Assembly (NCBI GenBank): GCA_965645245.1
Contig: OZ287087.1
Location: 868,001-932,000, forward strand
Direction of reading: 5' to 3'
Source: Massalongia carnosa
Lineage: Eukaryota
Length of the DNA stretch: 64,000 bases
Each line of letters begins with the position of its first letter. Positions within the stretch are counted from its first letter, which is position 1. The notes beneath the pieces were generated by a model, which searched no databases, was not told where the DNA came from, and saw only the letters and a program-made list of their open reading frames with translations. Shown piece by piece: positions 1 to 57,300 of this stretch. The translations under genes were made by a program, and so were the position numbers.

Positions 1-3000
1 AATAGACCCAGAAAGCTGGGAAGTGGAATACCCGTCAAAGGATATGAGCACATTGAAAATAAAAGTAAAAATCGGAAACGGAACAAAAATGATTCACATA
101 CACAACGTATACAATCCATCGCCCTTATCCACTTCCTCGATAACTAGCCCGTCCACCCTATCGACCGTATTACACCAATTACAAGACCTCGGAGAGCATA
201 TTCTTCTAGGAGACTTCAATCTCCATCACCCATACTGGGGTGGAGCAGGGGTACGAGGACAGCACGAGGCGTCCGAACAACTGCTGGACATTATAGAAAA
301 CAAAAATCTCTCTCTCACACTTCCAAGAGGAACAATTACATGGGAAGCAAGAAACTCGACCAGCACCTTTGATCTGGTGTTCATGACAGAAGATTTAACG
401 GAGAGATTGGAACACTGCACCACGGTCCCGGAGATGAATCAAGATTCCGATCACATACCGATTTCAACGAGACTGCGGCTCTCCTGCGAACCCCTGACAA
501 AGCTCCCTCGAAGGGCCTGGAAACTTCTAAACATGGACAAGGTAAAAGAAATCGAGAAAAGAACCCCCGCACCACGCATGCCGCACAGCATCGAGGAAAT
601 CGATCAATATACCAAGGAAATCCAGGATTACCTCAAGGAAATCGTAGATAAAGCAGTACCATAGGCCAGACCAAGCCCGGAGGCGAAACCCTTTTGGAAT
701 AAGGAATGCGACGACGCAACAAGAGAGACTCGTAGGCTACGAAGAATCTGGACCGCGGAAAGAAACCTAGCGGATTAGAAAAACTACGTTAAAGCAAACG
801 ATAAGAAACAAAAATTATCGGTAAAGCAAAAAATCTCTGCTTCAAACAGCAAATAGCCACAATCACAACTTCCCAATCCGGACTCTTCCGTCTAGCAAAG
901 TGGGGTAAAAACAAAAGTGACGCCCCCAGAGAAATCCCAAAAATGCCCCCCCTGGCCACAACCCAGGACCCTGATACGATAGCCAATACCTTCGAAGAGA
1001 AAGCGAAAATGCTAAAGAAACCTTTCTTCCCCCTATCCCCGGACGCAGATCTCAGCGACATCGTAGGATACACGTACCCGCAAACCCCAGACTGCCCCAT
1101 CCTGATCACGAAAGAAGAATTGGCGGCAGCGCTTCGTAGGTCGAAACCAGACAAGGCACCCGGTCCGGACGGGATCACAAATAGAATTCTCAAGGCATGC
1201 TCGGAAAATCTGATCAAGTTGCTGACACCACTGTTCCAGGCCTGCGCAGAGCAGGGTTATCATCCTCGAGCGTTCAAAACCGCCAACACCATCACGCTGA
1301 AGAAACCAGGAAAGAGTAATTACGCGGATCCTAAGGCGTGGAGACCCATTGCGCTCCTAAACACGCTTGGAAAAATGCTAGAATCCATTATAGCAAGGAA
1401 AATAAGCTATTTAACGGAAAAATTCAGATTAATTCCAGACACGCAAATGGGAGCAAGACCAGGCCGCGCAACGGACACAGCGCTCGAACTGCTCATGGAG
1501 CAGGTACACACAGTCTGGAATCAAGGGAAAGACAAAGTAGCATCGCTTCTTAGTATCGACGTCTCAGGCGCCTTCGATACGGTTTCACATCGTAGGCTCA
1601 TTCATAATCTGAGAAAGAGAAACTTTCCGGAATGGATCACGAAATGGACAGAAAGCTTCCTCAAGGAAAGAGAAACCACTCTCACTATCAATCAACGAAC
1701 AACCAACGCATTCCAGCTGAATATAGGAATTCCGCAAGGATCTCCTTTGTCTCCCATTCTATATCTCTTTTATAATGCAGACTTACTCGATATTTGCAAT
1801 AGACCAGGTACCAACGCAGCGGGCATGGGTTTCGTAGACGACGTCAATATTCTGGCGTACGGAAAGTCCACCGAAGAGAATTGCAAAACGCTGGAAAAAA
1901 TACACAACGACTGCGAACGATGGGCCGCTCGCCACGGCTCCGTATTCGCGCCACACAAATACGAGCTGATACACCTGGCAAAGAATCCAAAGAAATTCAA
2001 CCTGGACGCATCCTTCGCGGTAAGAGGCAAGATCCTGAAGACCAAGACTTCGATAAGAGTCCTGGGAGTATACATTGACACTAGACTCGATTGGGCAGCG
2101 CATTACAAGGAAATTCAGAAGAAAATGACGAGACAAACAATGGAACTGACCAAAATCGCAGCCTCAACCTGGGGGGCGACCCTCCTACGAGCCCGCCACG
2201 TGTACACAGCAGTGATACGCCCCGCCATGTCGCACGGCTCGATAGCATGGCACATGCCAGCCGAAGCAAGAAAGAAAGCCAAAGTCGAATCAAGAAGCAA
2301 ACTCGAAGTCATACAAAACAAGTGTTTACGAGTCATAGCCGGATCGTACAAGGCTACCCCAATTGAAATATTACAGGCAGAAACCCACATCCCTCCCTTA
2401 ACGCAACATCTAGACCGCTTACAAGCAAAAACGAGATCCAGAATCTCGAACAGCGAACAGGAAAAAATTATAAAGCAGGCGTGCAATAGAATTCAAGTGA
2501 AACTCAGAGGTAAAAGAGGTCAATCGCGAGTCGCAGAGGAAATACCGGGAACTCGTAAACGAGAATGGGTAACAAAGATGACGAAAGACGCACCGAAAAC
2601 AGTTAAACTGGATCAACCCTCTCCCCCTCCCTGGACAACGATCGACGAGGCACAGAAGAGACAACGCACAGCGCAAGTAACGACGCAGAACCAACGAGAC
2701 GGGATAATAAAGAAGCACTTTGAGAATCAGTGGATCAACAAGTGGAAAGCATATCAAGCAAAACACACGTTATATCCCACGATCGCACAACAGGCGCCTA
2801 TACACAGGAAAAAGCTTAACGCACACAAGTTACTAGACAAAGCGCAAAGCTCACTAGCAACACAGATAAGAACGGAAAAAATCGGACTAGCCAACTTTCT
2901 ATATCGGCGCAAGGTCCCAGGTGTGAACTCGGCGGCATGTCCCTGCGGAAGCCTCTTACAGCCAAACATGTAATCATGTTCTGCAGACTGCACGAACACA

Positions 3001-3366
3001 GAACGCACATGCTACGAACGGCAGGCTCGTTAGACTACCGCAAGCTAATCACCGAACCCAAAGCTCTCAAAGTAGTAACCGCGTGGCTCATGCGCACAGG
3101 TATTTTAACACAGTATTCCATTGCCACGCAACTGCTTGAACAGCAGCCGGGCAGTCTCTCTTCAGTTTGAAAAACAGGTATCGCAGATTTTCGAGATACA
3201 GGAATCAATCCGCGGGAGCGGCGAACCCCCGATGAAGCGGATACGCAGGAGTAGTTTTTCACCTTTGGGTTTTCTACTTATTACATAGCTTATATAGCAT
3301 CTCCCGAATGGGCCGGCCTTCGGCCGGTGACACAACGGCGTAAGAATAATCAAATCAAATCAATCA
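1..3366 (+). mobile_element. Tad1-like LINE, 3' part (ORF2: APE endonuclease, RT, C-terminal zinc motif), inactivated; 5' end outside window
   Basis: ORFs carry HNVYNP, LLGDFNLHHP, SDHIP (APE) and PGPDG, WRPIALLN, GIPQGSPLSP, FVDD (RT). Stops at 662 and 776, frameshifts near 820 and 2960. 3' hairpin at 3312-3328 and TCAAA-repeat tail at about 3346-3366. Confidence 0.95.
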
Positions 3367-4193: not shown

Positions 4194-4501
4194 TGTTATG
4201 GAACTGGTTTGGTTCCTGGAATCGAGATCGAACGCCTTAGCGCTGTGCCAAGCATCGGGACCTTCGGAGGCCTATCTTACACCACATGTCTAGCTATCTA
4301 AGTATCCTTACCTAGTCAGCAAAAGAACTTTCCATGCATGGTAGGCCCTGGTAGAAGGAGATTGCGATGGAAAGGATCGAGGCATAGGGGTAAAGGGTGT
4401 TAGTTGTATATAGTCTCTCAGGTGCTTCATGGTTTTTGGTCCTCGTCGGACGTCTTGTATATACATCCCAAGTATCTAGTTTATATGACCAATCCCTGAC
4501 A
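4194..4501 (+). repeat. 5' LTR of Gypsy element 1
   Basis: Direct repeat of 11683-11992, differing by a few transitions and 1-nt indels; TATATA at 4407-4412. Confidence 0.95.
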
Positions 4502-4515
4502 TTACGTCCGACCAA

Positions 4516-5704
4516 TCGTGGTACTGAGGTGGCAACAAGGTGGCTGGGTCGACGTCTTTTTGTCTACGATAGGCCTCAAGTTCTTCTTGAGTGACTGAAG
4601 TTTCCAGGGTGAGTTCTCTACTCATCGTGGATATGGCTAAGTGGATTTCCTTTTCACTAAGGCTTGCTCCAGGATTAAGCGGTGGGAATGCTTGGAGATG
4701 TACCTTGAGGTTGACTGCAGTCGACCTCGAGGAAGGAATACTAGGGCTGGGTGATGCTTCTATTCCTAAGAAGCTGTCGATTTCTCGGATTGAGATATTA
4801 AATATCTCATGGTCTTTTTGGCGGGCTAGGTGATCAAAGGTGATGGCACTTATACCAAAAACCTCCAAAGGTTTGGGAGGCTTGATGTGAGTCGCGGATT
4901 TGTGCGCACTCTCCTGGGGAGCTGGGCGTAGGCGGACATAGCTGCGGGCTCGCTGTCGCATTCTGGGAATGATTCCTTTCCGAATAGCCATGTCTATGCG
5001 GCTGGGACGATCTTCACTTTCTGGGTCCAAGACTAGCGGACTAGGCTGACTAGACTGCAGAGATTTCTTTTGATCTTCAGTTTGCCAAATGGCACGATTT
5101 TCAACGGTCCGTAAGAATTTTTCCTCCTTGTCGGTGATGGAACGCACCATGACAGGAGAAGGTCAACAATGAGCTAGGCAGAAAGAGGAAGACAAAGACG
5201 AGGTGTTATTCGAGAAATTGGCGATTGCACCGTGTCGTCGCAGCCAAGGATGACCTAAAATGATAGGATAGTGTCGCAATCCCGTAACATATAAGAAAAG
5301 CTTTTCTACGTGACCGTTTAGGTCCATAGTTACTTCAGCGACATGGTTTATGCTTCCTATTAAAGCAGGTCGTCCATCAAAGGCTCGAAGGAGTCTAGGT
5401 TTCTAAAGGGGATGCAGAAGTAGGTTGTGGGTTTGCGCAAAGGTTTTATCAATGAAGGAATATGCCGAAGCACCACTGTCAACAAGAGCAAGAGTTTTCA
5501 TCCTAGCCTGAGAACGGCGTAGTATACATGGGACGACCATATGGCCGTCTCTGAAAATCTCGTCGGACTCAAATAATTCCAACGCTGGTTTTACAGAGAA
5601 CCTGGTGCTGGACCTAAGAGAGGGAAAGACAGGGGAAGACATGATACCACAAGAGATTATTAAATCCTTTTCAGGTCCCTGCACGCGACTATGCGCAGGG
5701 ACTA
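4516..5704 (-). pseudogene. pol: Inverted 5' part of Gypsy pol (aspartic protease and spacer)
   Basis: ALVDSGASAYSFID protease motif and DVDPATLLPPQYH, collinear with pol at 58461-59780; in-frame stops. Confidence 0.9.
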
Positions 5705-5777
5705 GGCTGGCAACGAGGACCACCTGTACGCGGTGCCGGCTACGAACCTTCTGCTTGCCAGAAGAGCCAAGTGTCTC
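5705..5777 (+). ncRNA. Predicted HDV-like self-cleaving ribozyme
   Basis: P1 GGCTGGC/GCCGGCT, P3 ACC/GGT, L3 TGTACGC, P1.1 GT/AC, P4 CTTCTG/CAGAAG, J4/2 GCCAA, imperfect P2 GAGGACC/GTGTCTC; located at the first base of the insert. Confidence 0.7.
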
Positions 5778-6987
5778 TCTCCCTTCGGTGACGGGTGGGT
5801 GTCGGAGGTGAATCGGGGGGTGGGTGAGCACTCCGTGCGGTTTCACCAAAGCACACACATCGCGACGAAAGTTGAGTATCGAAAGAACGAACCACAAACG
5901 CCATAGTTCTCGAGGTGTTTTCTGAAGGACACAGTCATAGGAGGAGTAGCTCCTAATCTGGGGGTCGAGGAAGAGTCGAACTGCCACAAACGCGAAAGGG
6001 GTGACGCCCGACAGTCCTCGTACCCGTACGGGGGCCGACACGTTTACGATTCGACTACGAAGCGATTTACCGGGTGGAAAACAGAGTTTTCGGTCACACC
6101 AAAGAGCACGAGAGTATTGCTCCCATCGAAGTAAGAGCTTGGGAAGGCGGACGAGTCGGCACAGCCTCGAGGGGTCCTCGGAGGGAGCACATGGGAAGGC
6201 GGGCGAGTCGGTACAGCCTGAAAAGGAATAATGAGGCATAAGGAACTCCCGTTGGGGCTCGTTTGTGACGGCTATGTCACCGACGACCTCACCGCGGCCG
6301 GTGTACGTATATGACTTCAGGAATAGTCCTTGCTACTCTACAAGCTTGGTGCCCTAGTTCTTTTCGAAGAACGGTCAAACTACGACACGGTATTGAGGCC
6401 TGGTGGAAGGTGCACTTCTCTACCTTATTATTCTCGGAAAGGCCTCTGACCCATGGTTTTCGAGGTGGATGCAACGAGGTCATCTGACCCATGACTTATA
6501 ACGAAGGCGTATGCACATTCGGTCGACTTGAAGGGATAGAGGTGACGACATCGACACGTACGAGCAGCGATAGGCATGTCGAGGGCGATAGACACACAAA
6601 AACAGTCAAAAGTGGGAAGCAGGAATACATCTGGATTTGATTTCGATCTACTGGATGACCCGGCTCGGAGGGGATACGGGGGTCTTCCGCTGAGTCCCCG
6701 CTGGATAACGATTCGAGATCAAAACGACCAAGGCTCAAAAAAGTCCCTACCCTGACCATAGTGCGCGATTCATCGTGCCATTTCTTTTTCTTTCTGGTCA
6801 TGCAGTCCGCATAGACGTCCGAATCCGTTCCGGCCCCTAGGAGTCGGTGATGGAGTGTTGAAACACAGGGTTTTTGTCACCTCGTAAGGTTTTTTCACCC
6901 CTGTATATAGCCCCATAGATGTGCCCGCATGGGCCGTCCTTCGGACGGTGCCACATCGGAGAATGAATTATCATCATCATCATCATC
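5705..6987 (+). mobile_element. Non-autonomous non-LTR retroposon (SINE-like): ribozyme-like head, LINE-type 3' end
   Basis: 14-bp TSD ATGCGCAGGGACTA (5691-5704, 6988-7001), (ATC)n tail 6970-6987, 3' hairpin shared with the LINE ends at 3312 and 37434, no recognisable ORF. Confidence 0.85.
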
Positions 6988-6998
6988 ATGCGCAGGGA

Positions 6999-8415
6999 CT
7001 AGGCTTTTTCCGCATTGGCTGGAATTTCGTCATATAAGACGAGAGCGCGGACTTCAGAGGGTTTGTTGCCCTTGTTGGGGCAGTTGATGGCAGTTTTGCC
7101 AGGATGTTGAAGCTTGCAATAATAGCACAACTGCCAGTCATTACAAACTTTTCTAACCGCAGGGGCCTTGAGGCTCTGGCCTTTGACGAAGGCCAATGCT
7201 TGGGTCAGGTCCATAGGGTCTCCGGCAGGGAGATCCACGGCGACGGGGGGAAGAGCGGGGACGGAAGCGGAGGGGGCCCCTGTGATGAGGGCCGTGGAAT
7301 ATGCAAGCTTGGCCGAGGGGGCGCTCGGCGCCATAGGGTTGCCTCGACGCTGGCCGGCGGCTGCACTGGTGGTTGTGGAGACAGAAGCAAGGGCGACACT
7401 TTTAGGATATCGATGCTTAATTTGACGGAGCTTCCAATCTGTACTGGACCACATTTCCACATGATCCTGGAAGGTGACGGGCTCCGATCCGTCAGGTTTT
7501 CTCCAAGCTATTGCGGCCGCTTGGGTGGCATAATTTGTTGGAATACTCGCTTAGCCCCATTAGCTCTAGCTCAGCCCTGCAGGCTGCCATGACTGCTATA
7601 AGCAGTCACCTCCGTAGTAATTTCAACATTATGCCGTCAACTGTTTATTTAACATAATTGACGTTAGACCGCATGGCGTCTATGAGAGATGCATTCTCCA
7701 TGCCGGAACGTTCCTTCTTTTGGGCGAAGAGGTTGTAGTACTCCTCGAAACTCATCGTACCTTGCTTGAGGGTTTCTCTCAAGTAGATACGGGAATCTTC
7801 CTCCTCGAATCTGTTGCCACAGGTCTCTCGAAGTATACGGCGCCAGTCCATGAAAGAGGTCAGGATGCAGAGGCCCTCTACTCAATACCGGTTCATAAGG
7901 TTATGAGCTTTCTTTCCGATGGTTAGTCGAGACTTGGCATAGGTTATCTTTTCCCTCTCGGAGGGATATCGGTCCTGGTTGACATCCATCCATTGAATAA
8001 GGCTCTGTTCCCAGGCGTCCAGCTTAGCCATATCGCCGTCATATTCGGCGATGTCTAGTAATTTTTCCGACTTAGATGCCTTAGGCTCCGAGGCTTGGGG
8101 CAAGGCGGCGAGAACGGCGGCGGTGATGGAGGCGATGATCTGGGGGTCAATCGCCGAAGCAGAAAGGACGGAGAATACGGGCGTGAGAGAGGTAGCTGGC
8201 GGCGGAGGAGGAGGAACAAGGGGAGGCGATTGCTGTTGCGACAGCAGGCGAATCGTGTCATGCAGGGCAGAGATTTGGCTCTGAATTTTGTTAATTTCCT
8301 GTAAGAAAGGCAAGAGGGTTGTTTTGTGCTTCTTGCACCAGGGTAGCGGCTTGTTTTGCCTCAATGGCAGCAGAGGGAGATGTTGGAGTGATATCTTCCA
8401 TAGGTGATTCATCCA
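6999..8415 (-). pseudogene. gag: Inverted Gypsy gag, frameshifted and interrupted by a solo LTR
   Basis: SEKLLDIAEYDG...LDAWEQSLIQ, GDPMDL and LCYYCKLQHPGKTAINCP match gag at 57301-58443. Confidence 0.9.
7536..7654 (+). repeat. 119-bp solo LTR (TGTT...AACA) inserted in the inverted gag
   Basis: Perfect 5-bp TSD TAATT (7531-7535, 7655-7659); removing it restores gag NVNYATQAAA; TATAAG near 7597. Strand inferred from the TATA box. Confidence 0.8.
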
Positions 8416-8492
8416 TTGAATCGGACATTGCTGACTTAATTGACGGGGTTTTTCAACCAGCAGAGCGAAGGCGAAGACTTGAGAGAAGTGCT

Positions 8493-11400
8493 ATGTCTTT
8501 TCAAAAAAAGACTCTAACATCCTGCCCAAGCACCGACCTTACGATCATGCCATAAAACTAAAAGAAGGTTTCCATCCACCCAATCAGGCTCTTTATGGTA
8601 TGAGTCGCGATGAGATCCTTGAACTCCGCCGTTATCTAGACGACAATCTAACCAAAGGCTTCATTCGAGCCAGCAGTTCTCATGCCGCATCGCCTGTCAT
8701 GTTCGTCAAGAAACCTGGAGGAGGACTCCGCTTTTGTGTAGATTATCGAGGACTAAATGCAGTCACCATCAAGAACCGTTACCCTCTGCCCCTGATTGCC
8801 GAAACCCTGAACCGGCTGTCCAAAGCTAAGATTTTTACGAAATTAGACATCATAGCAGCGTTCAACCGCCTAAGAATCAGAGAAGGTGACGAAGAACTCA
8901 CCGCATTTAGAACTCGATTTGGTCTTTTCGAGTATCTCGTCATGCCCTTCGGTTTATGTAATGGCCCTGCCTCGTTTCAGCATTACATCAATGACACTCT
9001 TAGGGAATACCTGGACAACTTCTGCACCGCGTATCTATATGACATTTTGATCTACAGTGAATTCGAGGCCGAGCACGAGATTCATGTAAAACGTATTCTC
9101 ACAAAGCTCCGAGAGGCCGGTCTGCAAGTAGATATCACCAAATGCGCGTTTCATGTCACCGAAGTCCCCTACCTAGGCTTGACGGTGACCACTAAAGGCA
9201 TCAAGATGGATCCAGCCAAGATCGAGACGGTCGTCAATTGGCCAACGCCTAAGACCATGAAAGATGTTCAAAGCTTCCTTGGTTTTGCAAATTTTTATCG
9301 TCGTTTCATTCTAGGGTTCAGTAAAATCGCCGAGCCGTTGACCAAGCTTACTAAAAAGGATACCAAGTTCGTCTGGAGCGAGAAATGCCAGCAAGCCTTC
9401 GACTTCATGAAGGGAGCATTCACTTCCGATATGGTCCTACTGCATTTTGACCCAGACATGGAAATCATATTCGAGACTGACGCCTCCGACTATGTCTCTG
9501 CAGGAATCTTGTCCCAGTATGACCCCGAAGGCGCCCGTCGCATACATTTCCAAAAAGCACAACCCAGCCGAGTGTAATTACGAAATCTATGACAAAGAAC
9601 TCATGGTCATCGTCCGAGCTTTCGAGGTGTGGAGACCTGAACTAGAAGGATCCGCTCTCCCTATCAAGGTTATTTCCGACCATAAGAATTTAGAATACTT
9701 CGCCTCCACCAAGCAACTTAGCCGTCGCCAGACGCGCTGGAGCGAATTTCTGTCTAGATTTGACTATAAGATAGTCTACCGGCCAGGGAAAGCTGGTGGG
9801 AAACCTGACGCATTGACCCGAAGGTCAGGAGACCTCCCTCAGGAGGGGGATAGCTCTGATGAAAGACATCAATTTCAGCATCAGACGATCCTCAAAGCCC
9901 ATAACCTAGACGAAAATGTAGCGCAGAGCTTCAATCTAGACGATTCACTCATGTTAGCCCCAGCTTCTTTGGACCAAGAACACGAGCTCGACGCCGAGTC
10001 CGACGCTGAACCGAATGACGACCTAAATCCCAATGAACCTCAGTTAGACTTAGACTCGGATCAAGTCGCACCAGATCAAGACCCTATGGATGTAGCTACA
10101 CAGCATTTATGGAACCTAGCCCAGGACCGAGACCAGTTTGCCCCCAGAATCCTAGATATGCTCGCCAATGGTGCTCGATACCATAGCGGCATCCAACTAG
10201 CAGAGTGCGAAGATAGAGACGGATCTCTATATTTCAGGAATCGAAAGTACGTACCCAAGTCCGATAGACTAAGATTGAGGATCCTCCAGTTGGCCCACGA
10301 CAGCGTCGCAGGTGGCCACCCCGGCCGGGCAAAATGCCATGAATTGGTAAATCGAGCCTATTGGTGGCCCAACATGCATAAGACCGTCTAGAGATTCGTG
10401 CGTAATTGCCATGTGTGCAAGCGATCTAAGCCATCCCGCCAACGATATCAAGGCTGGTTACGTCCCTTGCCCCCACCCGAACGCCGATGGCGCGATGTTT
10501 CCATGGACTATGTCGGTCCCTTGTCGGCAAGCACCTTTATGGGGGTTACCTATCGATACGTCCTAGTCTTTGTTGACCGTCTCACCAAGATGCGTCACCT
10601 AGTCCCGGTCACCTCCATGGAAGTCGAGGAAGCGGCGAACGTGTTCTATCAAAGCGTGTGGAAACTGCACGGCCTACCAGATGTTTTAATATCTGATCGA
10701 GGAAGCCAATTCGTGTCGGAGTTATGGAAGATGTTTTGCAAACGATTGAGAATCGATGCTCGTCTGTCCACCGGTTATCACTTAGAAATAGATGGCCAAA
10801 CCGAGCGAGTCAACGCGGTCATGGAACATTACCTAAGAGCTTATGTTAATTACATGCAGGATGACTGGGCTCAATGGTTGCCTGGTGCAGAATTTGCTGC
10901 CAATGACACCGATTCCTCCAGTATTCTAGCATCACCGTTCTTGGCCAACTCGGGTCAACTTCCTCGTATGGGTTTCGAACCTGAGGAACCCTTGCCTCAA
11001 AACATCACCGCGCAGTTCCGTGCCAATCTAGTCTCGGCCAACGCCTTCGCCGATCGTATGCAGGAAATGGAAAGTCATCTACGAGATGAAATGCTCGTCG
11101 CTCAAGCCACGTATGAATCCACCGCCAATTCCAACCGTCGTCCCTGCCCTCGCCATACCGTAGGAGATATGGTCTGGCTGAATACCAGAAATATCCAAAC
11201 CGCTAGATCTACAGTCAAATTAGTCGACAGGAACATAGGACCATACCGCGTTAATCGAATCTTCTCAAATCCTCTAGTAGTGCAACTAGAACTCCCTAAA
11301 TCCGTAAAAACCCATCCAGTCTTCCATGTTAACCTATTGCAGCATGCTGCTAACGACCCACTGCCTGGTCAACACCCAGAACCCAGAGACCCTGTCATCG

Positions 11401-11669
11401 CTGAGGACGGCCAAAGAGAATGGTTTGTCAATAGCATCCTAAATTCCAAGTATGACCGACGTCATCAACCACACCTGCTCAAGTACCTTGTCGATTGGGA
11501 AGGATATTCCGCCACTTGGGAACCCTTGCATCTCATAACCAATTGCCAACAGGCACTAGATGATTATCATCTAGCTCACCCGAATGCCGCTGGCCCTCAC
11601 GTCACCCCTTGCACTATCCCTCGCTGTGCCAATGTCAGGACTAGCCGCTTCGCAGGAGCTCGCCCTTAG
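8493..11669 (+). pseudogene. pol: Gypsy pol RT-RNase H-integrase-chromodomain, disabled
   Basis: [19 protein letters not shown] (YLDD mutated), ETDASD, HPG..C..C zinc finger, SDRG, YLVDWEG; frameshifts near 8550 and 9530, stop at 10389. Confidence 0.93.
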
Positions 11670-11682
11670 AAGGGGGAGCTAC

Positions 11683-11992
11683 TGTTATGGAATTGGTTTG
11701 ATTCCTAGAATCGAGATCAGAACGCCTTAGCGCTGTGCCAAGCATCAGAACCTTCGGAGGCCTATCTTACACCACATGTCTAGCTATCTAAGTATCCTTA
11801 CCTAGTCAGCAAAAGAACTTTCCATGCATGGTAGGCCCTGGTAGAAGGAGATTGCGATGGAAAGGATCGAGGCATAGGGGTAAAAGGGTGTTAGTTGTAT
11901 ATAGTCTCTCAGGTGCTTCATGGTTTTTGGTCCTCGTCGGACGTCTTGTATATACATCCCAAGTATCTAGTTTATATGACCAATCCCTGACA
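11683..11992 (+). repeat. 3' LTR of Gypsy element 1
   Basis: Follows the PPT; TGTTATGG...CCTGACA. Confidence 0.95.
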
Positions 11993-12059
11993 GTAGATAG
12001 AACAATCATACCTTCTAATATTCGTGTCAGGTATTAAGGTGATCAATTGTGACCCCAAT

Positions 12060-12790
12060 ACAAATAACACCGATTTGAAAGCCAGTAGAGAGCACGTTCA
12101 AGTAACTCTACATTAAAGAACATGGCGAGACACCACCGCTGCTGAAATCGGAGCCTTCATCGGAATTTTGTTATATATGGGTTATACGCGCATGTCTCGA
12201 ATTGACGACTATTGAAACGTCTATTCGAAACACGCTTTGCATGCCACCGTTATTGCCTGCATGGGTCGCTGTCGATGGGAGTAAATAAAGCGATATTTGA
12301 AGATATGCAACCCCGTTGAAGACCAAAAGCTTCATACACGTGGCCCGATTGGTGAAAGAAATTGAAACCGTTGATGATCGAGTTCCGAATAGCTTCAAAA
12401 AAGCATTGGATTCCAGACAACCACGTGTCTGTTGATGAGCAATTAGTCAAATTTAGAAGAAGAAGTCGTCATGTCATGCAGATAGCCACCAAAGCCCAAG
12501 GAGTAAACACCAAGGTGTATAGTCTATGTGATCAAAATTATCTCTATGAATCCCTTCTTTCATTCAAGGTTTGAAGCAAAAATTCGAGAATTTAGGCTTA
12601 AATAATTGATTTTCTGCTCAGATCACCAAGGTCAGCGAGTTGAAAGCAGCCAGGCAATTGAATTTTTCAGCTACCAAATGGGGGTTAACTTCTTCCTCTT
12701 TGACGATTATTCAGCTATGCAAAAGTCTTTCTACGAACGCCAATCACCTTTTATTTGTCAACTAACAGCTATGCACATTCGAGATCTCAC
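12060..12790 (+). pseudogene. piggyBac-like transposase fragment
   Basis: WRDTTAAEIGAFIGILLYMG and VSVDEQLVKFRRRSRH...TKAQG..KVYSLCD..YLY; many stops; termini not found. Confidence 0.75.
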
Positions 12791-12814
12791 CACACCTCAA
12801 GCGCTCAACCTAAC

Positions 12815-15800
12815 TCATGACTCAACCGAATTTATAACTAAATCAGAACACAGTCTTTGCGAAATTTTAAACCCGTACTTTCCCTCTTCAAAAATTGAAC
12901 GGCCCTCACTTTCCATCAAGGTACGATCAACAGCTTGACTCGCTCGAAATATCTGCTCGATCTCATCCACTTCGTGAAACTTCCTCTGATCTCGAAGTAC
13001 CGAACCAAGGTTCCTCATACTTCTCTGTGTGTGCGGATTATTAGGACCAAATATTTTTAGCCGGGTTTGCAAAGCTCTGCGATGATATTGTTCGCTCTCT
13101 TCTGGACGCTTGAGGTGTCGAAGGACAATGCCAAGCATATTAACACATGTTAGTGTCTGAGGATTGTCTCCTCCTAATCGCGTCTCCCTAACAGTAAGAC
13201 CTGTCCGGCTGATAGTCTCACTTTCCCTGAATGCTTGCATTGCCAATAAAATATTGCCCATCTCATTGTGGCGTAAGCCAATCTCCTTCAGAGTGGCAGC
13301 CAGATAGTCCATTGTCAGCACAGCCTCCAGGCTATTCTCGCCAAAGACCCGGTTCTTCTTGATCAGCGTCGTACGTGAAAGGGCTTCCGCCTCTTCGAAG
13401 AGACCTTGCTCTGCCAACGTGTTGGCTAGCCCATCCTCGGATAGAAGGGTATCTGGGTGATTGATGCCCAGTAGTGCCCTCCGAAATAGTAAAGATTGTT
13501 CGTGGAGACGTCTACTTTCGTCATGGTTTCCCATTCGAGTCAGGACAGAGGCAAGCAGAACATGGAATTTAAAGTCACTTGATATTGTTCCCCCAGGGTC
13601 CGTATGCGGCCGTCCAAGACTTCACGGTGCAGTACCGCAGATTGTGTCCATTCCCCGCGATAATGTAATAATTGAGCGAGCTGAAATTTTGTCTCTAAAG
13701 TCTCGGGATGATCTGCACCAAAATCCATTGTTCTCCGCTGAACAACTTCTTCGAGGCGCAAGCGGAAGCAGTCAACAACCAAAGCGAGACGAGGGTCCTG
13801 AAAAACGCAATTTCCAATCCAGTCGTTTAGGAGTTTCTGCGAAACGAGCAGATTGCTAACTGAAAAACCAGCATTGTTAACGGCGACGCACCGCTCTATA
13901 TAAGCCAGCAGCTGATCAGATTGGAGGAACAAATGCAAACGGCGTAACAGATCCATTGTTGGTGCTCCAGACTGAGCCAAATGTCGAACCCAGAACATCG
14001 CGGCATATTCGAGAAGATCGGAAGAAGGGTTCGTAGGGGCTGGGCAAGAAGCAATGATTTTAGATCTGTCCTTCCACTCTTTAAAGTTCAGATATGTGAT
14101 ACAGATGCTGCCTAAGTGTTGATTTGCTTCTGATTTGACAACGCGGAACTTTGCGACTGGAATCTGCTGAGAGCTGCAGGGCTCTTCAGAGACTAGTAGG
14201 TACTCCTTGACAGTAAGATGTACAAAACTTACGACGCGTTCAGCACGGTCCTCGCTAGGCTCGGAGATCTTTACAAGCGACCCAAAAATATCTTCCAAAA
14301 AACCTGTCAGATCCAAAACTCGATCATCAGGATCGATCTCTGAGGCTCCTGGCCGAATAGCTAGAGCTGTGGCTAGCTCTGATACTGTTAAGTGCCGCTC
14401 TGCACATGCAAGCCAATTAAGCAGAAGTTGAGCCGTCCTTTGCCGTCGATGGTTTTCCGCCAGCAGCTTCTCCAAGATCCGACCATAGAGTTGACTCAGA
14501 CCGCGAGGGACGTTGTTCAAAATCTGATTGATTTCAGAGAGACAGGTTGCTTTCTCGAGTGACTCAACCATCAGTCGCGTCCACAGGAACTGTCCGTCTG
14601 CCTTCGATATTAGTGCTTGTGTGATTCGATGACTCATAGTGTTATCTAGGAAATTGGAAAGTGGAGATCTCTGAACCACTTTCCGTATGTATAGAGTCAT
14701 GTCTTGCTCGATCACGTTCGAAGTAATCTCAAGTGAAGACCACGTCGATAGTGCAATGCGAAGCCATGGCTCACTCCGACTAAAAACCGATAGATGAAAT
14801 TGATGGTTGGCGGATAATTCAGCAAGTTGCTGCAGCAAAGTAGACTCACGGCCACTCTCGCACTCATCCAATGCATCAATGATAACAAATATCGGATGAG
14901 AGCGATGCGTGATCATTGCCTTGAAGAGATCTAGTAGTTCTAAGAAGGATGTAGATTTTTCCTGGCCACTTTTTATGATAACCTCACGAGCCAATTGTAC
15001 AAGATCGGTGTTTCCAGCTACGAGCTGCGCAATAAGTGACCGCAAAACCCCAATAGGGGTTCTCTTCGCTGGATCTCCTTCGTCGCAGAAGAAATATATG
15101 ACTGAGATTGATACTTGCTGTGCTTTCATGTGTGCGACTAGAGAAGAGCTGAGCATGCTTTTCCCACACCTAAAATTCCGTTCAACATATACATAACATT
15201 TGTCGCAAAGGGAATGAAAGGATGGCTCACCCTGGTATACCTTTAACCCATAGTAATTTTTGAGTTCCGCTTGACCAAGCTTTCACCTCTGGTCTCATGA
15301 AGAACCATGTGCCGGTGCCTTCTGCTCGCGCTCGCTGAAGGTTCTCAAAGCGATCCTTAGTATCGGCAGGACCGAGCCATTTGATGACCTCCAGACATTC
15401 TAAAAGTTCTTGATGCGAGTTTTGTCGACGTCTTGCAGATTTAGATTCCTCGATATGACAAAAATTGGCTTCGAGATCAACGAGATTTTTGTGCTTCTCT
15501 AAGTTAACAATGATTCTATCTGATTTTGCTTCAAAATCGCTCCAGAGAATCTTTTTAAACAAAAGAAAGCCTAGGCAATGATTGTAAGCCTTAATATTAG
15601 CAGAATAGAGAAGCATAACCGACTCTTCTTGCAAAAGAAAGTAGTCGCAAGAATGCAGAAGTCTATAACATCGGCGTACACTGCAGCGAGCATTTCGCAA
15701 AGCTTTGTGCTGTCCGAAAAGATGTCGACGACTTGCTGTATCCTAGGCAAATGATCACCGAGATCGTTGATAACCTGGGAGAATTTATCGAGGTAATTGA

Positions 15801-20806: not shown

Positions 20807-23800
20807 TGCCCTCAAACGTAAGTGCCCTGAAACGTAAGTGAAAGAGTTAGGTTATGGAAGGAAAAACGGGGTGGGCTCGGTCTCCGCAAATGATTCGCTC
20901 TCAGCGTTTCCAATTCGGGCTCTCATTGGTCATTAATGCGGACACTAGGAATTTTGTCGCTCCGAAAGTCATTACTCTAACCCAAACGGTCCATCTAGGG
21001 CAACCGTACACAGTAGATGGAACGTTCCTTTCGTGTTACGGTGGTCACAAGGGCTTCATAGATGGATGGAATAATTGCTAACAGCCTTTAGTCTAACCTC
21101 AATGGTTCATCTAGGGCAACCGTAGATGAAAGGTTCGGTATGGTTGAATGAACCTTCACGTGTCTTATTTTGATATTATGGCTATCTGCTGATAGATGTA
21201 ACCCACTTTTCCTTACTCAACCGACTTTGAATAAGCGTTGTGCTGCCTTTGTAACTTCTTTCTGATGTTTGTAAAGGGGCAACGATCGTTTTCGAGTTTG
21301 ATTCTTTCGCATATAGCTTGTATAAAATGGCCAATTCTTTTAATCCTTCTGTGCCAAAGCGTCTGATTGATGCTTCTCCTACACGTACTCGGAAACGAGG
21401 GAGACCCTCACATACGTCGCTATTAGCGACCTCTTTTCGCCGAATACTACCACGACCGTCTGGATCAAATGAGAGGAGGCCAGAGCACCGCCCTTGTTCT
21501 ACATCTCGATCCGTTCTTCAGCCTACGGCCCACAACGGCCTTCTTGACTTCAATCCTAGAGAAGTATTGATTAATGATTTCAATAAAAGGAAAGCCGCCG
21601 CTTCGTCCTTTCCTCCTGTTCTCACCGGTATCTCTACTCGCGAAGCTGTCAGGCGTTTCCAGACTCATGTAGAGACTGTCGTGGCCGATACTACGAATGT
21701 TTGCGCTTCTTGTGGACAGTTCATATCTCATGCTTTCGTTAACATGCTGCACAACACAGATCTTGTATTTAGAAAGGCTGTGTTATCAAAGACAATCGTG
21801 GAAGCTGACCTTGATTGTTGTGGATTGAAGGATGACAAGTTTTACTTCTGCAAAGCCTGTTTCGGAATGCTTTTGCAATCGAAAATCCCAAAATTTGGAT
21901 CCGTCAATGCTGTCAGCATGTCAGCTTGTCAAAGTTATCCCATAATTCTTAAAGACCTGACGTCGGTAGAGGAAGCCGTCATTGCTCGAGCTCATCCTGT
22001 GATTTCGATAATGAAGTTAAGACCTAGTGGAGCCAGCCGTTTCATCTCCTATCAACGAATACGCGGTCATGCCGTAGTACTTCCCCAAAATCCTGGGCCG
22101 TTACTCGATATTTTGCCGTCGAGCTCCTTAGTGTTGCATGATGTGATCCGAATAGTGTGGGCTAGCAAAAGGCCTCATACCGTTGAAGATATTCGCCCCT
22201 TTGCTCGCATTAGAAGAGACAAAGTTTTACAAGCCTTGCTCTGGCTTAAAGACAACAATCCACTATACAAAAACATTGTCATCAACTACGGCTTGTTAGA
22301 AAACTGGGAAGACGAATTCGTTCCAGCCGGTATTGCTGATCGTGTGTTACAGTGTGGATCAGATTTTGCGGAAAGAGAAGGGTACACTATGAATCTTGAA
22401 AGTGACAACTACGAAAACGACCTGCATCATGCCGTCGAAGACGCTGGATTGAATGATTCGGGTATATTAAGTGGATGTTTATACACAGACGCTGACGATA
22501 CTCGAGAACATCCAACAATGAAATTAGTGGCAGCAATTACGAATCATAAGCGCGCTGAGGATTCGATTAGTGCGTCTGATTCACCAATCCTTACTTACGA
22601 AAGCAAAGGCCATCCGGTTCCCTTGAATGACTGAGATAATCCAGACTTCTTTACAGCTGCCTTTCCAACGCTTTTTCCCTTTGCCGTCGGTGGTCATATC
22701 ATCAAGAAGAATGAATCTAGACAGACAAGGGTGTCGCTTCAGGCTTGGGCAAAATGGGCCCTATCTCATCATTCGAGACGGTACGCTAATCTACATTTCT
22801 ATGGAATTTGGCTGATGCATTTAGATTTGCCCGTCATCCTGCATTTATGTTTCTTGTGTACGATGTGATCAATCGACGTCAGGCATCATTAGGATATTCT
22901 CTACTCACCAAGACGAGACAATGGGAGGAAACACATGCTTTAGTGGATGCTATCACGTTCTCACAGCTTGAAGCTGCGGCTATAGAGATTAAAAAAACCG
23001 GGAAATGTACCGATTCGACCATTATTAAATTGGAGCGTCAGGTTCAGGTAGTGGCCGTCACGACACCACACTCCTTCGCTAAATGCGCGAATCAAGCAAT
23101 TCATATGAAAGCATTAATGCTGAGCGATGGAATGCCTGTTTTGTGGATTACGATTAATCCATCTGATCTTCGCAGTGTTTTAGTATTGGTTCTTGCTGGC
23201 ATGCGATACGAGGACAGTAGTAAAGACAATTCTGCAGAAGAATTTGCAAGAACTACAGCAATAATGAATCCAGTAGCAGTGGCTCAATTTTTTGCGGCTA
23301 CTTGCAGAAGTATTTTTGAGCATTTATTGGCCGCAGGTTCTGAAGACGGAGGTCTTTTTGGGCCTGTATCAACATATTTTGGTACTGTGGAGACAAACGG
23401 CCGAGGAATGTTGCATTTGCATTGCCTCGTATGGCTTCGCGGTGTTTTTCACATATCAAAGCTACGCAATCAATTGCGTTCCGATCCTGCATACACAACT
23501 CGCATGATACAGTTTATCGATCGTATAATTAAATGTTCCATTGTTCCTTCAGGAAGATCGGATGTCCCAAAGCTGAACGCTCCATTAGCCTCTCTAAATG
23601 AGACTGATCAGGAATTCGCCCAAAAACTGGAGGATGATAGCAATGCCGTTGCCTCCAAGTTTCAATTGCATTCGTCGTCTCACAATGCAACGTGCTTTAA
23701 ATATGGAGCCGCTGCCACCGGCCAATGTCGATTTGACTTCCCGCGACCTTGTAACGATCAAACGAAAATGACGGAACAAGGCAATATCGAAGTGTTTAGA

Positions 23801-26800
23801 AACGGTGTCTGGATCAATCCTTGGTGTCCAGCCTTTGCCTCCCTTATCAGGTCAAATCACGATATCAACTTCATTCCTTCGAATGTTAAAGCCTTGGCCC
23901 TCGTACGCTATATAACTAACTACGCTACTAAGGGGAACTGCAGTCAATATCAACGGGTTATGGGGGCAGCATTTATTCGCAAAGCCTTTGAAGATGCAGC
24001 AGATAAACGTGTCGCGGCTGGTCATCCAGAACAAATACGGATCGTAGATGTTGACAAATTCGCTCTTCGGGCCTTTAATCGGCTCGCATATGATCGAGAA
24101 ATTAGTGGCCCTCTTGCTGCTAGTTCTCTGTTAGATTTGCCCGAATATTTTACCCCGTGCCGGAATATAAAAAGACTCAATCTGTTTGCTCTTCGTCAGA
24201 GATTTCCAAAATTGCTCTTTGCAGACATGTTTGAGTCGGATCCTATTGACAGTTTTGTACGTTTTTGTCCATTCAAAGAATTGTCAGTTAGCATGTTTGA
24301 TCATTATCAATGGAAGGGATCAGAGCTTGCTCAGTATTCGCTATACGATTATTTCAAACTTATCACAATTGTCAGTGATCGCAATAGGGTCGACGACGAT
24401 ATTCCTTTCGGCAGCGGTCATCCACATCAACAATGTGGTGCGCAGCGTCCTTTAAAAGTATCTTCATGCAGCACTTTGGTGGCTCTGATAGGGTCATTGT
24501 CAACAAACGAGGCCGCTGAAGACGCTATACAGGGAGGCCATCCAGATACAGATGCAAGACAGAATGATCTGGGTTTGATTTTACTCGGTCTATTTGTTCC
24601 CTGGGATCAACTATCGAGGAAATTTCATGCTCATAATGCTACCATATCGTCCTTTCTCAATTTTACCTGGCAAATTTGGTTGGAGGCTACGGAAACTCTT
24701 GACGAATATGCGTTATATTGCGCTGACAATATTTTACAGATGAGAAAGAGTCAAATAGAATCGAAATTAGATCAAGAACAGCGACGTGCTGCCAAGAATC
24801 AGGCCATGGAGATGTCAGTTCGAGAATTATTAGAAGAAAATGAAACCGGCCAGGCCGATGAAGCAGAAGAATCAGAAATCGACGAATATCTAGGCCTCCC
24901 AAACGCTCATACACTTTTGAATGTTGTAGATATAACTCGTCATCGATGGAGAGAAATGGATGCTGCAAACAGTCGCGGGGTTTCGGTTTTGTCTCATATG
25001 CAGCACTCTTTGCAAAGAGCTGACGATGAGGGTACTTCTCAAAGCGATTTACGATATGATCTGAACCCATCTGGAGCGGAAACAAATATTTGCTCCTATC
25101 TTGACGTCAGTACCAATTTCAGCCAAATCACAACTGATTTATGGAAGAAGGTGCAAAATTTGGCCAACGCTCAACAGGGTGAATACGATGCTGAAGACAG
25201 AACAAATGACTTTAGCGATCATATCGAGGCCTCTATACACCGTACATCTGCTTTAGGGGAATTGGAGCCTGTAATAAATCATATTTCATCATAACCGATC
25301 GTCATGGATCTCAACTGCGGAGTCTTACTGCCTGATAGTGATTGCAATACGGTTTCAGATCATATACACACTGTTTTGCCTTTGAATTACTTACAGCGAT
25401 TGGTTGTCGAGGAGATTCTTGATCATGTCATACAACCAAGGGAAAGGCATGCCTCAGAAGAGAAGATCAGTTGTTATTGTACATCAGAGGTGAAGGAGGT
25501 GTGGGGAAAAGTCGAGTCGTGAAAGCTCTAGAGTTGGGCTTTGCTTTACTAAATAGACGAGCGGAGTTAATAATTACAGCACCAACTGGATGTGCGGCCG
25601 AGAGTATTGGGGGGAGCACCGTATACACAGCGTTGAAGATTAACACTCGACGTGCAAATGATAATGTATCCAAAATAAGTTCATCATGGACTCGGCGATC
25701 AGCCCTCGTCGTTGATGAAGTGAGTATGATTGATATCAAACTACTCACTGCGATGGATAAGCAATTGCGAAAGGCTAGAGGTTCGGATTTTTCTTCCACC
25801 GCTCTCTTCGGAGGTCTACCTCTTGTAGTCCTTATGGGGGACTTTTATCAATTCGCCCTGGTGAGTGGACATGCTCTTTGGGATGAAGCTGTAGGTGAAG
25901 ATGAGATACACGGGAAAACGTTATGGAATAATTTCACATACGTCATAACTCTCACAGAGCAGATGTGTCAAAAAAACGATTCATTATTCCAAGCATTGCT
26001 CAAACGAGCAAGGAATGGAGAACTCAATCTTGAAGACGTAGACACTCTGAACGATCGAGTCGCAACAAATCTTCCGATCTCGCAGTCAATGGACAGCGTC
26101 GTTGTTGTGCAAAAAAACAAGACGAGACATCTAGTGAATCGATTGCAGATCGAGAGATTCGCTCGATCTCAAAATCAAGACATACTTCTCTTTCCTGCCG
26201 AGCATTTCCGGACCAAAAAAGATGGTGGTAGAATCGTTGAACACGAAGATCTTTTCAACGCACAGGATGGGGAAGGCAATTGCACAGGACCAGGCTTGTT
26301 ATTTACTGCAAAGGCATGCCCGCTGGATTGTTAGCCAATCAATGCACACCGTTAGGAATAGTTAACGGGGCCAGAGTTGTGGTTTATGGCTTTGTACCCT
26401 ATCCTGATAGTACGCTTCTTCTCTATTATCAAGAATCTCGCTGCCGTCGTCTAGCGACCTTTCAAAGACTGGACATTCATACTGTTCTGTGTTCCCATCC
26501 GCCACGCTGTGTTTTACTTCAAAGGCGTACTCGCCTACAAAAGTCTTTTCCTGAACTCCCTGATGATGTTTTTCCAACGTTAAAGTTACCTGGCTTGAAA
26601 GTTACTAGAAATCAAATTCCGCTTACCCCTGGATTTGCTGTCACAGATTACAAGGTACAAGGAGCTACATTTAAAACTGCGGTCTTAGATCTACGCCGAG
26701 GGCAAAAGGTTAGAAAGGAATCTCACAAAAGATTTTGCTCTACCTATGTACAGCTGTCTCGCCTTCAATCTTTAGATGGTGTGCAATTGCTGGAGAGAAT

Positions 26801-27108
26801 AGAGCTGAGCTTTATCAACCAAAAACCACACATAAATCTTCAACAGGCGAGAAAAGAACTTGACATCTTTTCCGATAACACCTTGAGTTCTTGGACTCTT
26901 CGGTTTAATGCGAGACGCCAGAATGCTTGGTTTACTCCCAGGGTCAATTGAAGGTTGAAGGTTTATAGATCTATCAACGAAAATAGCATCTACGATTGCC
27001 CTAGTTGAATCATTGAGATTAGGCTAAAGACTTATCGCATTGAGCTGAGGGTGTGATTCATTAATTAACAATTATTCCTTTCAGCCCGCCACATGAAAGT
27101 TCCATCTA
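20807..27108 (+). mobile_element. Helitron-like element, approximate extent
   Basis: The 5' region is repeated at 28355-28970 and partly inverted at 26960-27108; true termini not identified. Confidence 0.6.
21327..26951 (+). pseudogene. Helitron-like RepHel (Cys-rich/DUF6570-like N-terminus, HUH Rep, PIF1 helicase)
   Basis: WITINPSD, YFGTVETNGRGMLHLHCLVW, YITNYATK (Rep); GEGGVGKS, VDEVSM, GDFYQ, KVQGAT, YVQLSR (PIF1). Stops at 22632 and 25292, frameshifts near 25455 and 26300, GTACGC-AG introns near 22780 and 26410. Confidence 0.9.
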
Positions 27109-37406: not shown

Positions 37407-37573
37407 TAGTTATATAAAACCACGCCCGCATGGGCCGGCCTTCGGCCGGTAACATGTCGGTGTAAGAATTTATCATCATCATTATCATCGTCTTGTTTCG
37501 ATAAATTGAATAATTCGACAGATTTAATTTAATCCTTTACGCGACGTAAAGACAAAATTATTTATAATACGAA

Positions 37574-52885: not shown

Positions 52886-53070
52886 TGTCCCTACGTGTTG
52901 GATATCAACCTATGGCGCTAGACATTATTATGGTCACGTGTAACAGTAGACCTATTCCGGTATGCGGCACGCATCCTGGACTTGGATGATTTTAGACTTT
53001 AGAATGACAGAGTGATAGAATCATTAATATAACAACAATGAATAACCTCATACTTCTACACTACGGGACA
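52886..53070. repeat. 185-bp TG...CA insertion in LINE ORF1
   Basis: TGTCCCTACGTG...CACTACGGGACA imperfect terminal inverted repeat; no TSD. Confidence 0.6.
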
Positions 53071-56000: not shown

Positions 56001-57300
56001 GCATACAGACCCATAGCTTTACTGAACACAATAGGTAAGGTATTAGAAGTAGTCATCGCAAGGAATATCACTCATATAGCGGAACAGCACCGGCTACTGC
56101 CGGACACACAAATGGGTGCTCGGCGTGGCCTATCTGCCGAGTCTGCGCTCGAACTCCTCACCGAATAGGTACACACTGTATGGGGATAAGGCAGCAACAA
56201 GGTGGCAACTCTCCTCAGCATGGATTTAGCAGGCGCATTCGACACAGTATCTCATCGCAGGCTAATACATAATCTGCGAAAAAGGAAAATCCCGAAATGG
56301 ATCACAGACTGGACGGCAAGCTTTCTAATGGAAAGAAGAACCACGCTAGCGATAAACGGGCGAGTAACCGAGGAGTTCGCGGTGCGCACGGGCATTCCTC
56401 AAGGCTCACCCATTTCCCCTATTCTCTATCTGTTCTACAATGCGGACCTTTTAGAGATATGCGAGAGACCCGGCACAAACACGAGCGCGCTAGGATTTGT
56501 AAACGACGTAAATGTTTTGGCATACGGCAAGAGCACGGAAGAAAACTGCAGAACCCTCGAAAGAATTCACAGAAAATGCGAACTATGGGCGGCACGCCAC
56601 GGGTCCGTATTTGCACCGGATAAGTATAAGCTCATTTATTTGTCCAGAAATCCAAAGAAATTCGACATGTCGGCTACTTTTCAAAAAGAAAACAACCTAA
56701 TAGAACCGAAAACGGACATACGAATTCTGGGCATCCATGTCATGAAATGCCTCCGACCTCACCACGTGCCTCTATCACGTGCCTTGATCTGATGACTACT
56801 CACGGACGTCGTGCCATGCCTTCGGGACCCTCATATCATTCTTCGAATTCGCCGATTACTGATCATTAATCAGCCTCGCATTGATGATTTATTCCCGTCT
56901 TTCGACTATTATCATGTCTAATAGCTTCGCATTGATGTTTGACATCTCCCGTCTCCTCGCTGACCCCATCGTGCTTATTGCCGCTATAATGCCCCTCATT
57001 CATCATCGCACTGACTAGACATCATTCGCCGTCACCCTAGAAAGATGAATATGGGAGGACAAAGATATAAGAAAGAAGTCGAATCATGGAAGTTCTGATT
57101 CTTTGTCGAACGTCTTGAATAGCCAACCTAGCCTAGCCTAGATTCATAGCTATAGACTCAATCAATAAGCTTGACCATCAACCCACCTTGCCTTTGCCCT
57201 TGCCCTCGACCTGATTTCGTGACATTACGTTCGACCAAGATTCAAAAGTGCCTTCCATAGCATTTTCCCTCATCTCCCTTTATCTCATTCCCCCTCAATC

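Follow-up and report, generated by a model that had tools for sequence, protein, structure and literature searches.

Short retroposons that begin with a self-cleaving ribozyme are known from animals and trypanosomatids. In Drosophila, the short internally deleted elements (SIDEs) of R2 are non-autonomous R2 derivatives with a 5' hepatitis delta virus (HDV)-like ribozyme (PMC3414825, PMC6765202), and in trypanosomatids the NARTc, RIME and SIDER elements carry Pr77/L1TcRz, the HDV-like ribozyme of the L1Tc/ingi long interspersed nuclear elements (LINEs) (PMC4035085, PMC3185411). HDV-like ribozymes also head LINEs and non-autonomous elements in diverse metazoans, RTE and Baggins among them (PMC6765202), and the Magnaporthe element MINE is a chimeric retroelement in which the non-coding WEIRD RNA is joined to the 3' part of the MGL LINE (PMC2104539). 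Here we describe an insert of 1283 bp at positions 5705–6987 of a 64 000 nt stretch of the Massalongia carnosa assembly GCA_965645245.1 (contig OZ287087.1, positions 868 001–932 000 of the forward strand), the whole of which is referred to below as the window. We consider it, with a probability of about 0.85, to be a full-length, non-autonomous, non-coding retroposon of the type that lacks long terminal repeats (non-LTR), with a predicted ribozyme at its 5' end, probably mobilized in trans by a LINE and most likely of the SIDE type. By analogy, it is built like R2 SIDEs and like the trypanosomatid elements NARTc, RIME and SIDER, here in a fungus.

As the sources drawn on here describe them, R2 SIDEs resemble the window element in having a 5' HDV-like ribozyme (predicted in our case), in the loss of open reading frames (ORFs) and in the retention of a 3' end for the LINE protein; their ribozyme cuts a co-transcript and they are mobilized in trans, and the same design is proposed for the window element. 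R2 and its SIDEs are site-specific in 28S rDNA, use a restriction-like endonuclease and are co-transcribed by RNA polymerase (Pol) I, whereas the candidate partner of the window element has an apurinic/apyrimidinic (AP)-type endonuclease domain (Exo_endo_phos_2), and the elements described here are dispersed in a fungal host with target-site duplications (TSDs) of 10–18 bp and microsatellite tails. In the published descriptions available to us, NARTc, RIME and SIDER are likewise dispersed and flanked by TSDs, and are likewise short derivatives sharing the ends of a LINE that has the same 5' ribozyme of about 77 nt; they differ in kingdom and LINE lineage, in the proven function of Pr77 as an internal promoter and in their polycistronic transcription. 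RTE and Baggins are promoter-less non-LTR elements which a 5' HDV-like ribozyme releases from read-through transcripts, as is proposed here, and the cases given in the review are metazoan (PMC6765202), whereas ours is fungal. MINE, like the window element, is a fungal non-coding retroposon with a LINE 3' part, and is mobilized by a LINE, as is probable here. However, the parts of the MINE report used here mention no ribozyme head and describe template jumps between unrelated RNAs, whereas relatives of the window element point to internal deletion of a LINE. No report of fungal retroelements with HDV-like ribozymes was found in the literature searched, and lists and supplements of the primary surveys of HDV-like ribozymes might contain fungal entries; a first, sequence-only reading of the window had taken the combination of ribozyme, unique body and Tad tail to be undescribed in fungi as far as known.

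The insert is bracketed by a single long direct repeat, ATGCGCAGGGACTAGGCT, identical at 18 of 18 positions (5691–5708 and 6988–7005), which comprises a TSD of 14 bp and a further GGCT. It lies within the gag–protease part of a Gypsy element, and a paralogous Gypsy at 57.2–62.9 kb of the window is colinear across the insertion site and lacks the insert. Read on the minus strand, this empty site is ...ATGTGCAGAGACTAGGCT/TTTCCC..., and the same continuation is found as loose ends behind position 5708 in contigs of four sequencing runs. Because the empty paralogous site reads GGCT, these bases belong to the target too, and since the target has GGCT and the head family described below begins GGCY, the four extra bases are best read as microhomology at the 5' junction. 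This is how the sequence-only reading had explained them, and its descriptive statements on the insert (a TSD, an (ATC)n tail, a LINE-like 3' end, no credible ORF and no tRNA) all hold.

That reading had also placed the first base of the insert at G1 of an HDV-like fold, and this is borne out by relatives of the first 76 nt of the insert, whose covariation fits a double pseudoknot of the HDV type. Ribozymes of this kind have as their hallmark a cleavage-site G1 that forms a G.U wobble where P1 starts, they make no demand on the sequence upstream, and their self-scission leaves 5'-OH and 2',3'-cyclic phosphate ends; the window head has the wobble. The minimum-free-energy fold of 5705–5790 is not unusually stable (z 0.65) and shows P1 and P4 only, as expected for a pseudoknot. 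A loose descriptor of the fold matched 10 start sites in 128 kb and was used solely for its coincidence with the first base of the insert; given those 10 sites, the fold by itself would be weak evidence, and it is the comparative data that lift it far beyond chance. Relatives were collected by scanning metagenome contigs with a 21-mer from the head, CACCTGTACGCGGTGCYGGCT, which gave at least 120 loci, the 80 named contigs originating from 16 sets with JAABU-prefixed and JAABVA accessions together with five Ga-prefixed records. Among the matches listed there were at least 50 distinct ribozyme sequences. In their alignment (A1), 94.3 % of the pair cells hold standard pairs, against 33–52 % when the partners are slid; 12 pairs show compensatory changes, and the 136 double-change cells compare with 45.6 in shuffled alignments, the observed number being reached in none of 500 shuffles.

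A covariance model (R1) was built from A1 with the window sequence left out, and its single match in the window is full length, at 5705–5780, with 82 bits and an E value of about 1e-17; this match is not fully independent, as the loci had been retrieved with 21 nt of the same head. Applied to the 80 long loci, R1 gave 88 matches, seven of which lack the exact 21-mer. In two of these seven heads P1.1, otherwise GU/AC, is CC/GG and UC/GA, respectively, and a P3 pair is altered in two copies that look as if affected by repeat-induced point mutation (RIP). When the 50 distinct heads, these seven and the window head were aligned (A3, 58 sequences), 94.1 % of 1384 pair cells were paired (34–53 % in slid controls), 16 of the 24 pairs, distributed over all five helices, had compensatory changes, and on none of five measures did any of 500 shuffles reach the observed value. 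The cleavage-site pair is GU in 55 of the 58 sequences and AU in two, and the C of GAGC in J4/2 (window position 5767), which we predict to be the catalytic C, is at least 90 % conserved in both A1 and A3. The covariation shows that the predicted double-pseudoknot fold of the head is under selection. It was also observed that the P1 variants GGTCAGC and GGTTAGC retain pairing through G.U, that some loci contain several heads (four in L054), and that some heads are heavily C>T/G>A mutated (GC 0.31–0.39) in a RIP-like manner; heads at L002 6544–6628 and L016 3168–3260 were noted in the same connection.

Random 5' ends among copies would have spoken against a ribozyme-defined terminus. Among the pattern matches listed, the 5' strand of P1 is present in 118 of 121, the other three being two 5'-truncated copies (L002 and L019) and one contig end (L096), and clustering of the 30-mers upstream of these 118 heads gave 61 groups unrelated to one another, no base being preferred at positions −6 to −1. 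Repeats of the TSD type, 10–15 nt long, were found in 18 of 65 loci with distinct flanks (in 14 of these the repeat measures 13 nt or more; the insertion site is the same in L013 and L027), many of the 65 having only 300 nt of flank, so that the 3' end is out of reach. The repeats of 10–11 nt may in part be due to chance and were kept since in every case the 3' end and tail that precede them are typical of the family. The 18 elements so bracketed are 569–2774 nt long, start 0–3 nt from G1 and end in simple-repeat tails; NARTc, RIME and SIDER have poly(A) tails, whereas the fungal elements carry tails of the (ATC)n, (TTA)n, (AATCA)n, (CA)n, (CAAA)n or A-rich kind. Many independent insertions thus have their 5' end at G1, and the relatives, through covariation, the 61 flank clusters and the 18 TSD-bracketed elements, support the core of the sequence-only reading, that of a ribozyme-headed retroposon which begins at G1. 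With the LINE proteins of the window as queries, tblastn found no ORF2 directly behind most heads in the metagenome loci. What is encoded past the heads belongs to the host (ESCO acetyltransferase, amino-acid permease, aspartyl protease, PigL_N), and the presence of such ordinary fungal genes is consistent with short dispersed elements. Separately, L030 and L043 (both at about 9030–9227) and L057 (6795–6992) have, some 1 kb past the head, a stretch that weakly resembles an endonuclease (32 % over 66 aa), with no reverse transcriptase (RT) match and no long ORF; they may represent another decayed head-bearing LINE of a different lineage.

Evidence from the source genome itself came from contigs of sequencing runs: the element is contained in five runs from three studies, one of them labelled as a lichen metagenome, and contigs of four runs were compared with the window element. 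The same 5' junction is present in runs X1, X2 and X5, and two X5 contigs with unlike flanks begin to match at 5705. Further contigs match 5721–5753 only and then diverge, with a different P4 loop and the conserved AGCCAA, and their P2 3' strand fits the variant P2 5' strand of other contigs. Neither the lack of an RNA data set among the listed runs nor the lack of coverage of the Gypsy flank in X3 was taken as evidence. The k-mer depth of body contigs is 2.7–3.2 times that of junction contigs (1227 versus 452 in X2, 2400–2700 versus 835 in X5), a ratio of depth and not a copy number; a second variant, about 92 % identical, occurs at about 1x depth, and a 9.1 kb contig of X3 carries a shorter relative of 81–86 % identity. 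From these junctions, depths and variants it follows that the element is multi-copy and that other head-bearing elements are present in the same genome. The several copies with a common 5' start that the sequence-only reading called for are thus represented by at least two further junctions at 5705 and by variants. In the contigs of all four runs there is an extra C after 5780, a T>C difference at 5921 and one base missing at 6617 relative to the window, so that the other copies, as collapsed into a consensus, disagree at these three places with the window copy or its assembly.

At its 3' end the insert carries a module of the kind that terminates LINEs. Region 6868–6969 is homologous to the LINE ends at 3244–3352 and 37368–37476 of the window and to the ends of L012, L016, L019, L022 and L031, and the last 65 nt of the insert are 83 % identical to 37424–37489 and 82 % identical to 3303–3352. 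Alignment of eight such 3' ends (three from the window, five from metagenome loci) defined a common module of about 100 nt that ends in GTA.GAAT before the tail, and in five of 15 predicted pairs both partners have changed with pairing preserved. A strict regular expression for the 3' hairpin of the window found nothing in the metagenome loci, where the relatives have a covarying hairpin instead. The candidate partner family is represented by the LINE at 1–3363, whose 5' part lies outside the window. Its recognizable domains are Exo_endo_phos_2 and RVT_1 (Pfam), with nothing further in the C-terminal 299 aa, and its 3' untranslated region (UTR) is only about 390 nt long (2974–3363). With an endonuclease and an RT as the domains seen, the Tad1-like ORF2 invoked by the sequence-only reading is a candidate. 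For the element that ends at 37489 no 5' boundary was found, merely a 10-mer having matched. The similarity of the 3' ends suggests that the window element is probably mobilized by a LINE. A second LINE (53040–56790 and 63425–64000) has 58–64 % amino acid identity to the first and a 5' end near 53 040 without a head; a complete Gypsy with long terminal repeats (about 56.8–63.4 kb) interrupts it at residue 424 of the RT, and in this Gypsy the same short repeats were noted at 57127/63321 and at 57186/63380.

Between its two ends the insert is non-coding. Its longest stop-to-stop frame on the plus strand is 93 aa, none of 17 frames gave a Pfam match at E≤0.05 (one weak match, E 0.08, lies far under its cut-off), and ARAGORN found no tRNA in the insert; nor did any Rfam family reach its gathering score in the window. 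When the insert was compared by tblastx and blastn with the window LINEs, similarity was confined to the 3' end, and comparison with the window together with all fetched loci matched the two ends only. The check for a LINE coding remnant in the body, which the sequence-only reading had asked for, gave no trace of ORF2 by tblastx or Pfam. That reading called the element SINE-like; canonical short interspersed nuclear elements (SINEs) have a Pol III head derived from tRNA, 7SL or 5S RNA, and as the window element has none it is not a SINE in the strict sense. The body also contains a direct repeat of 42 nt (6126–6167 and 6178–6219, 81 % identity, 52 nt spacing). The word TCGA is enriched in 5705–6987 (14 occurrences, 4.9 expected, a number reached by one of 500 mononucleotide shuffles), and in several metagenome families (L001, L006, L008, L066 and others) words resembling (A)ATCGAC are found repeatedly a short distance past the ribozyme; such words could be a protein-binding or promoter motif, or could reflect composition only.

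The origin of the body is illuminated by L019, the one family in which a LINE with this head was recovered. L019 is a TSD-flanked element of about 6.5 kb (7995–14499; ATTCATTGATTCATTT repeated at 7975–7990 and 14509–14524) whose head lacks the first 10 nt and whose ORFs are broken, with endonuclease similarity at 11474–11662, RT similarity at 12099–14102 and a (TAT)n tail. L022, L012, L031 and L016 share with it the first 1.1 kb or so (87–93 % identity) and the 3' end and lack the middle, L022 retaining a C-terminal part of the RT. Common ends without the middle identify L012, L016, L022 and L031 as internal-deletion derivatives, of the SIDE type, of a ribozyme-headed LINE, and sequence comparison identifies their putative body as the long 5' UTR (1.1 kb) of that LINE. 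By analogy with this family the window body is probably a LINE 5' UTR as well, and the window element is most likely an internally deleted LINE that has retained ribozyme, 5' UTR and 3' UTR. The window body has no similarity to the window LINEs or to any fetched locus; that it is a 'unique body', as in the sequence-only reading, is doubtful, given that the bodies of the L019 family are LINE 5' UTR.

An alternative that we think unlikely, though it deserves to be kept in view, is that the element is composite in the manner of MINE, a foreign cellular or other non-LINE RNA having become joined, through template switches, to a ribozyme head on one side and a LINE 3' end on the other. Such an origin would account for a body that resembles neither the window LINEs nor any fetched locus, and for the unrelated bodies found in different head-bearing families. 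However, where a LINE could be recovered, in a single family, its own 5' UTR makes up the body of the short elements. Moreover, 5' UTRs of LINEs diverge rapidly, and a full-length LINE for comparison with the body is absent from the window. A second alternative, which we regard as improbable, is that the head is a conserved structured 5' element, an internal promoter or protein-binding site, that is HDV-like in form and does not cleave, so that the ends at G1 reflect transcription initiation. The core sequence is indeed strikingly conserved across families, self-cleavage is here predicted from the fold, and the 77 nt of L1Tc are described as both promoter and ribozyme (PMC3383444), at least in the part of that report used here; yet all five helices, the cleavage-site G.U and the J4/2 C are maintained by compensatory change, which is difficult to account for unless selection acts on the ribozyme fold, a dual role being conceivable. 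That the insert is an ordinary 5'-truncated, 'dead on arrival' LINE, its body a long 3' UTR or decayed ORF2 and its fold coincidental, is very improbable, for although it shares its 3' end with LINEs and 5' truncation is frequent (L002 and L019 are truncated), it starts at G1 of a fold that matches R1 at 82 bits, other junctions in the same genome begin at 5705 too, no ORF2 remnant is detectable and the 3' UTR of the window LINE is far shorter than the body.

Our current working model for the preferred reading, that of a ribozyme-headed element mobilized in trans, is as follows. Transcription would read into the element from upstream, and the HDV-like ribozyme formed by the first 76 nt would cut the transcript 5' of G5705 and so create the RNA's 5' end. 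The endonuclease/RT of a related LINE would then recognize the 3' module (hairpin, ATGAAT end and ATC repeats) in trans and copy the released RNA by target-primed reverse transcription, and the 5' end would be joined at the 4 nt GGCT microhomology, leaving the 14 bp TSD.

Several observations weigh against this reading. No ribozyme head was found on the LINEs of the window, namely the one truncated by the window start, the one that begins near 53 040 and a remnant; the comparison with possible partners was limited to these LINEs, the set containing no full-length LINE of the source genome, and tblastx and blastn against the window and the fetched loci found no similarity of the body to any LINE. 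The window copy lies antisense to its Gypsy host and has no evident promoter upstream, so that transcription of the Gypsy would not yield sense RNA and expression of this copy itself is doubtful. The depth ratio given above is merely indicative of multiplicity. As to the head, P2 of the window copy has a bulged U or, alternatively, just four contiguous pairs, and the HDV-type families of Rfam gave no match in 5500–7200 even at E≤10, which places the head in a sequence family separate from the curated ones. Finally, the search pattern fixed P3, L3 and the 3' strand of P1 in 50 of the 58 sequences of A3, and because these columns were fixed the covariation in P3 and P1.1 rests on two to four sequences, two of them RIP-like in appearance.

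The features of the insert, of its surroundings and of the tails of related elements are collected in Table 1.

Table 1. Features of the window element, the associated LINEs and host element, and tails of TSD-bracketed relatives
Feature	Location	Strand	Remarks
Left TSD ATGCGCAGGGACTA	5691–5704	+	Repeat runs on through GGCT 5705–5708, common to target and element
HDV-like ribozyme head	5705–5780	+	Hand fold, R1 match, covariation; predicted cleavage 5' of G5705
P1	5705–5711/5735–5741	+	G1.U37 wobble (G5705.U5741)
P2	5715–5720/5773–5779	+	One bulged U (U5776)
P3	5722–5724/5732–5734	+	
L3	5725–5731	+	UGUACGC
P1.1	5726–5727/5742–5743	+	
P4	5748–5753/5759–5764	+	
J4/2	5765–5772	+	AGCCAAGU; conserved C at 5767
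Non-coding body, about 1.09 kb	5781–6867	+	Holds 42 nt imperfect direct repeat
LINE-type 3' UTR module	6868–6969 (about)	+	GGTTTT and CATAG boxes, hairpin 6934–6948, terminal ATGAAT
(ATC)n tail	6970–6987	+	Tandem Repeats Finder (TRF) gives 6970–6989, (ATC) x 6.7; last AT overlaps TSD
Right TSD ATGCGCAGGGACTA	6988–7001	+	Then GGCT of target at 7002–7005
Host of insert: Gypsy gag (CCHC) and protease part	4476–8490	−	Split by insert
LINE cut by window start	1–3363	+	Endonuclease 2–664; RT 805–2973, in another frame; same 3' module; (AATCA)n tail
Second LINE-type 3' end, ATC-rich tail	37368–37489	+	Closest to 3' end of insert (83 % over 66 nt)
(CA)n tail	L010, L037, L066		641–901 nt
(CAAA)n tail	L008		852 nt
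(TTA)n tail	L012, L022		1514, 2638 nt
(AATCA)n tail	L016, L031		2774, 1672 nt
A-rich tail	L001, L003, L005, L006, L013, L027, L028, L051, L055, L077		569–1194 nt

The window as a whole is a nest of transposable elements. The Gypsy that hosts the insert consists of two halves of opposite orientation (4476–11669), gag and protease on the minus strand (4476–8490) being abutted by a plus-strand half (8483–11669) with RT, RNase H, integrase and chromodomain, an arrangement that reflects either an inversion with its breakpoint in the protease–RT linker or two elements placed head to head. Also present are an NLR-type gene with NACHT and TPR domains at 13540–15282 (−), a Helitron (Helitron_like_N and PIF1 helicase) at 21255–26951 (+) and a complete Copia polyprotein at 44925–49316 (+).

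A wider proposition, which we advance tentatively and rate as rather unlikely at present, is that fungal LINEs of a whole, diversified lineage, abundant in fungi from lichens and other environments, have in common a conserved HDV-like ribozyme of 76 nt as a portable 5' module. This module would stand at the start of four or more families of short retroposons (0.57–2.8 kb) that are non-coding and have unrelated bodies and different tails, and it may double as an internal promoter. If this is true, the elements would form a new ribozyme-based SINE-like class in fungi and, to the extent of our searches, no retrotransposon with a ribozyme terminus would have been reported from the kingdom before. 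With the present finding, fungi would join animals and trypanosomatids as hosts of non-LTR retrotransposons that have a ribozyme terminus and of the internally deleted elements that parasitize them. The repeats concerned are probably labelled 'unknown' in current libraries, and annotation of transposable elements gains a covariance model and a diagnostic feature, namely that G1 of the ribozyme is the 5' end of the element; ribozyme biochemistry gains a natural set of more than 50 predicted compact HDV-like ribozymes rich in covariation. Heads adjoin ordinary fungal genes in several loci and could also cut host read-through transcripts. A ribozyme-defined terminus would explain how, in compact fungal genomes, LINE and SINE-like copies that lack a promoter come to have defined 5' ends and, were the head to act as an internal promoter as Pr77 does in L1Tc, such copies would be self-sufficient for their expression.

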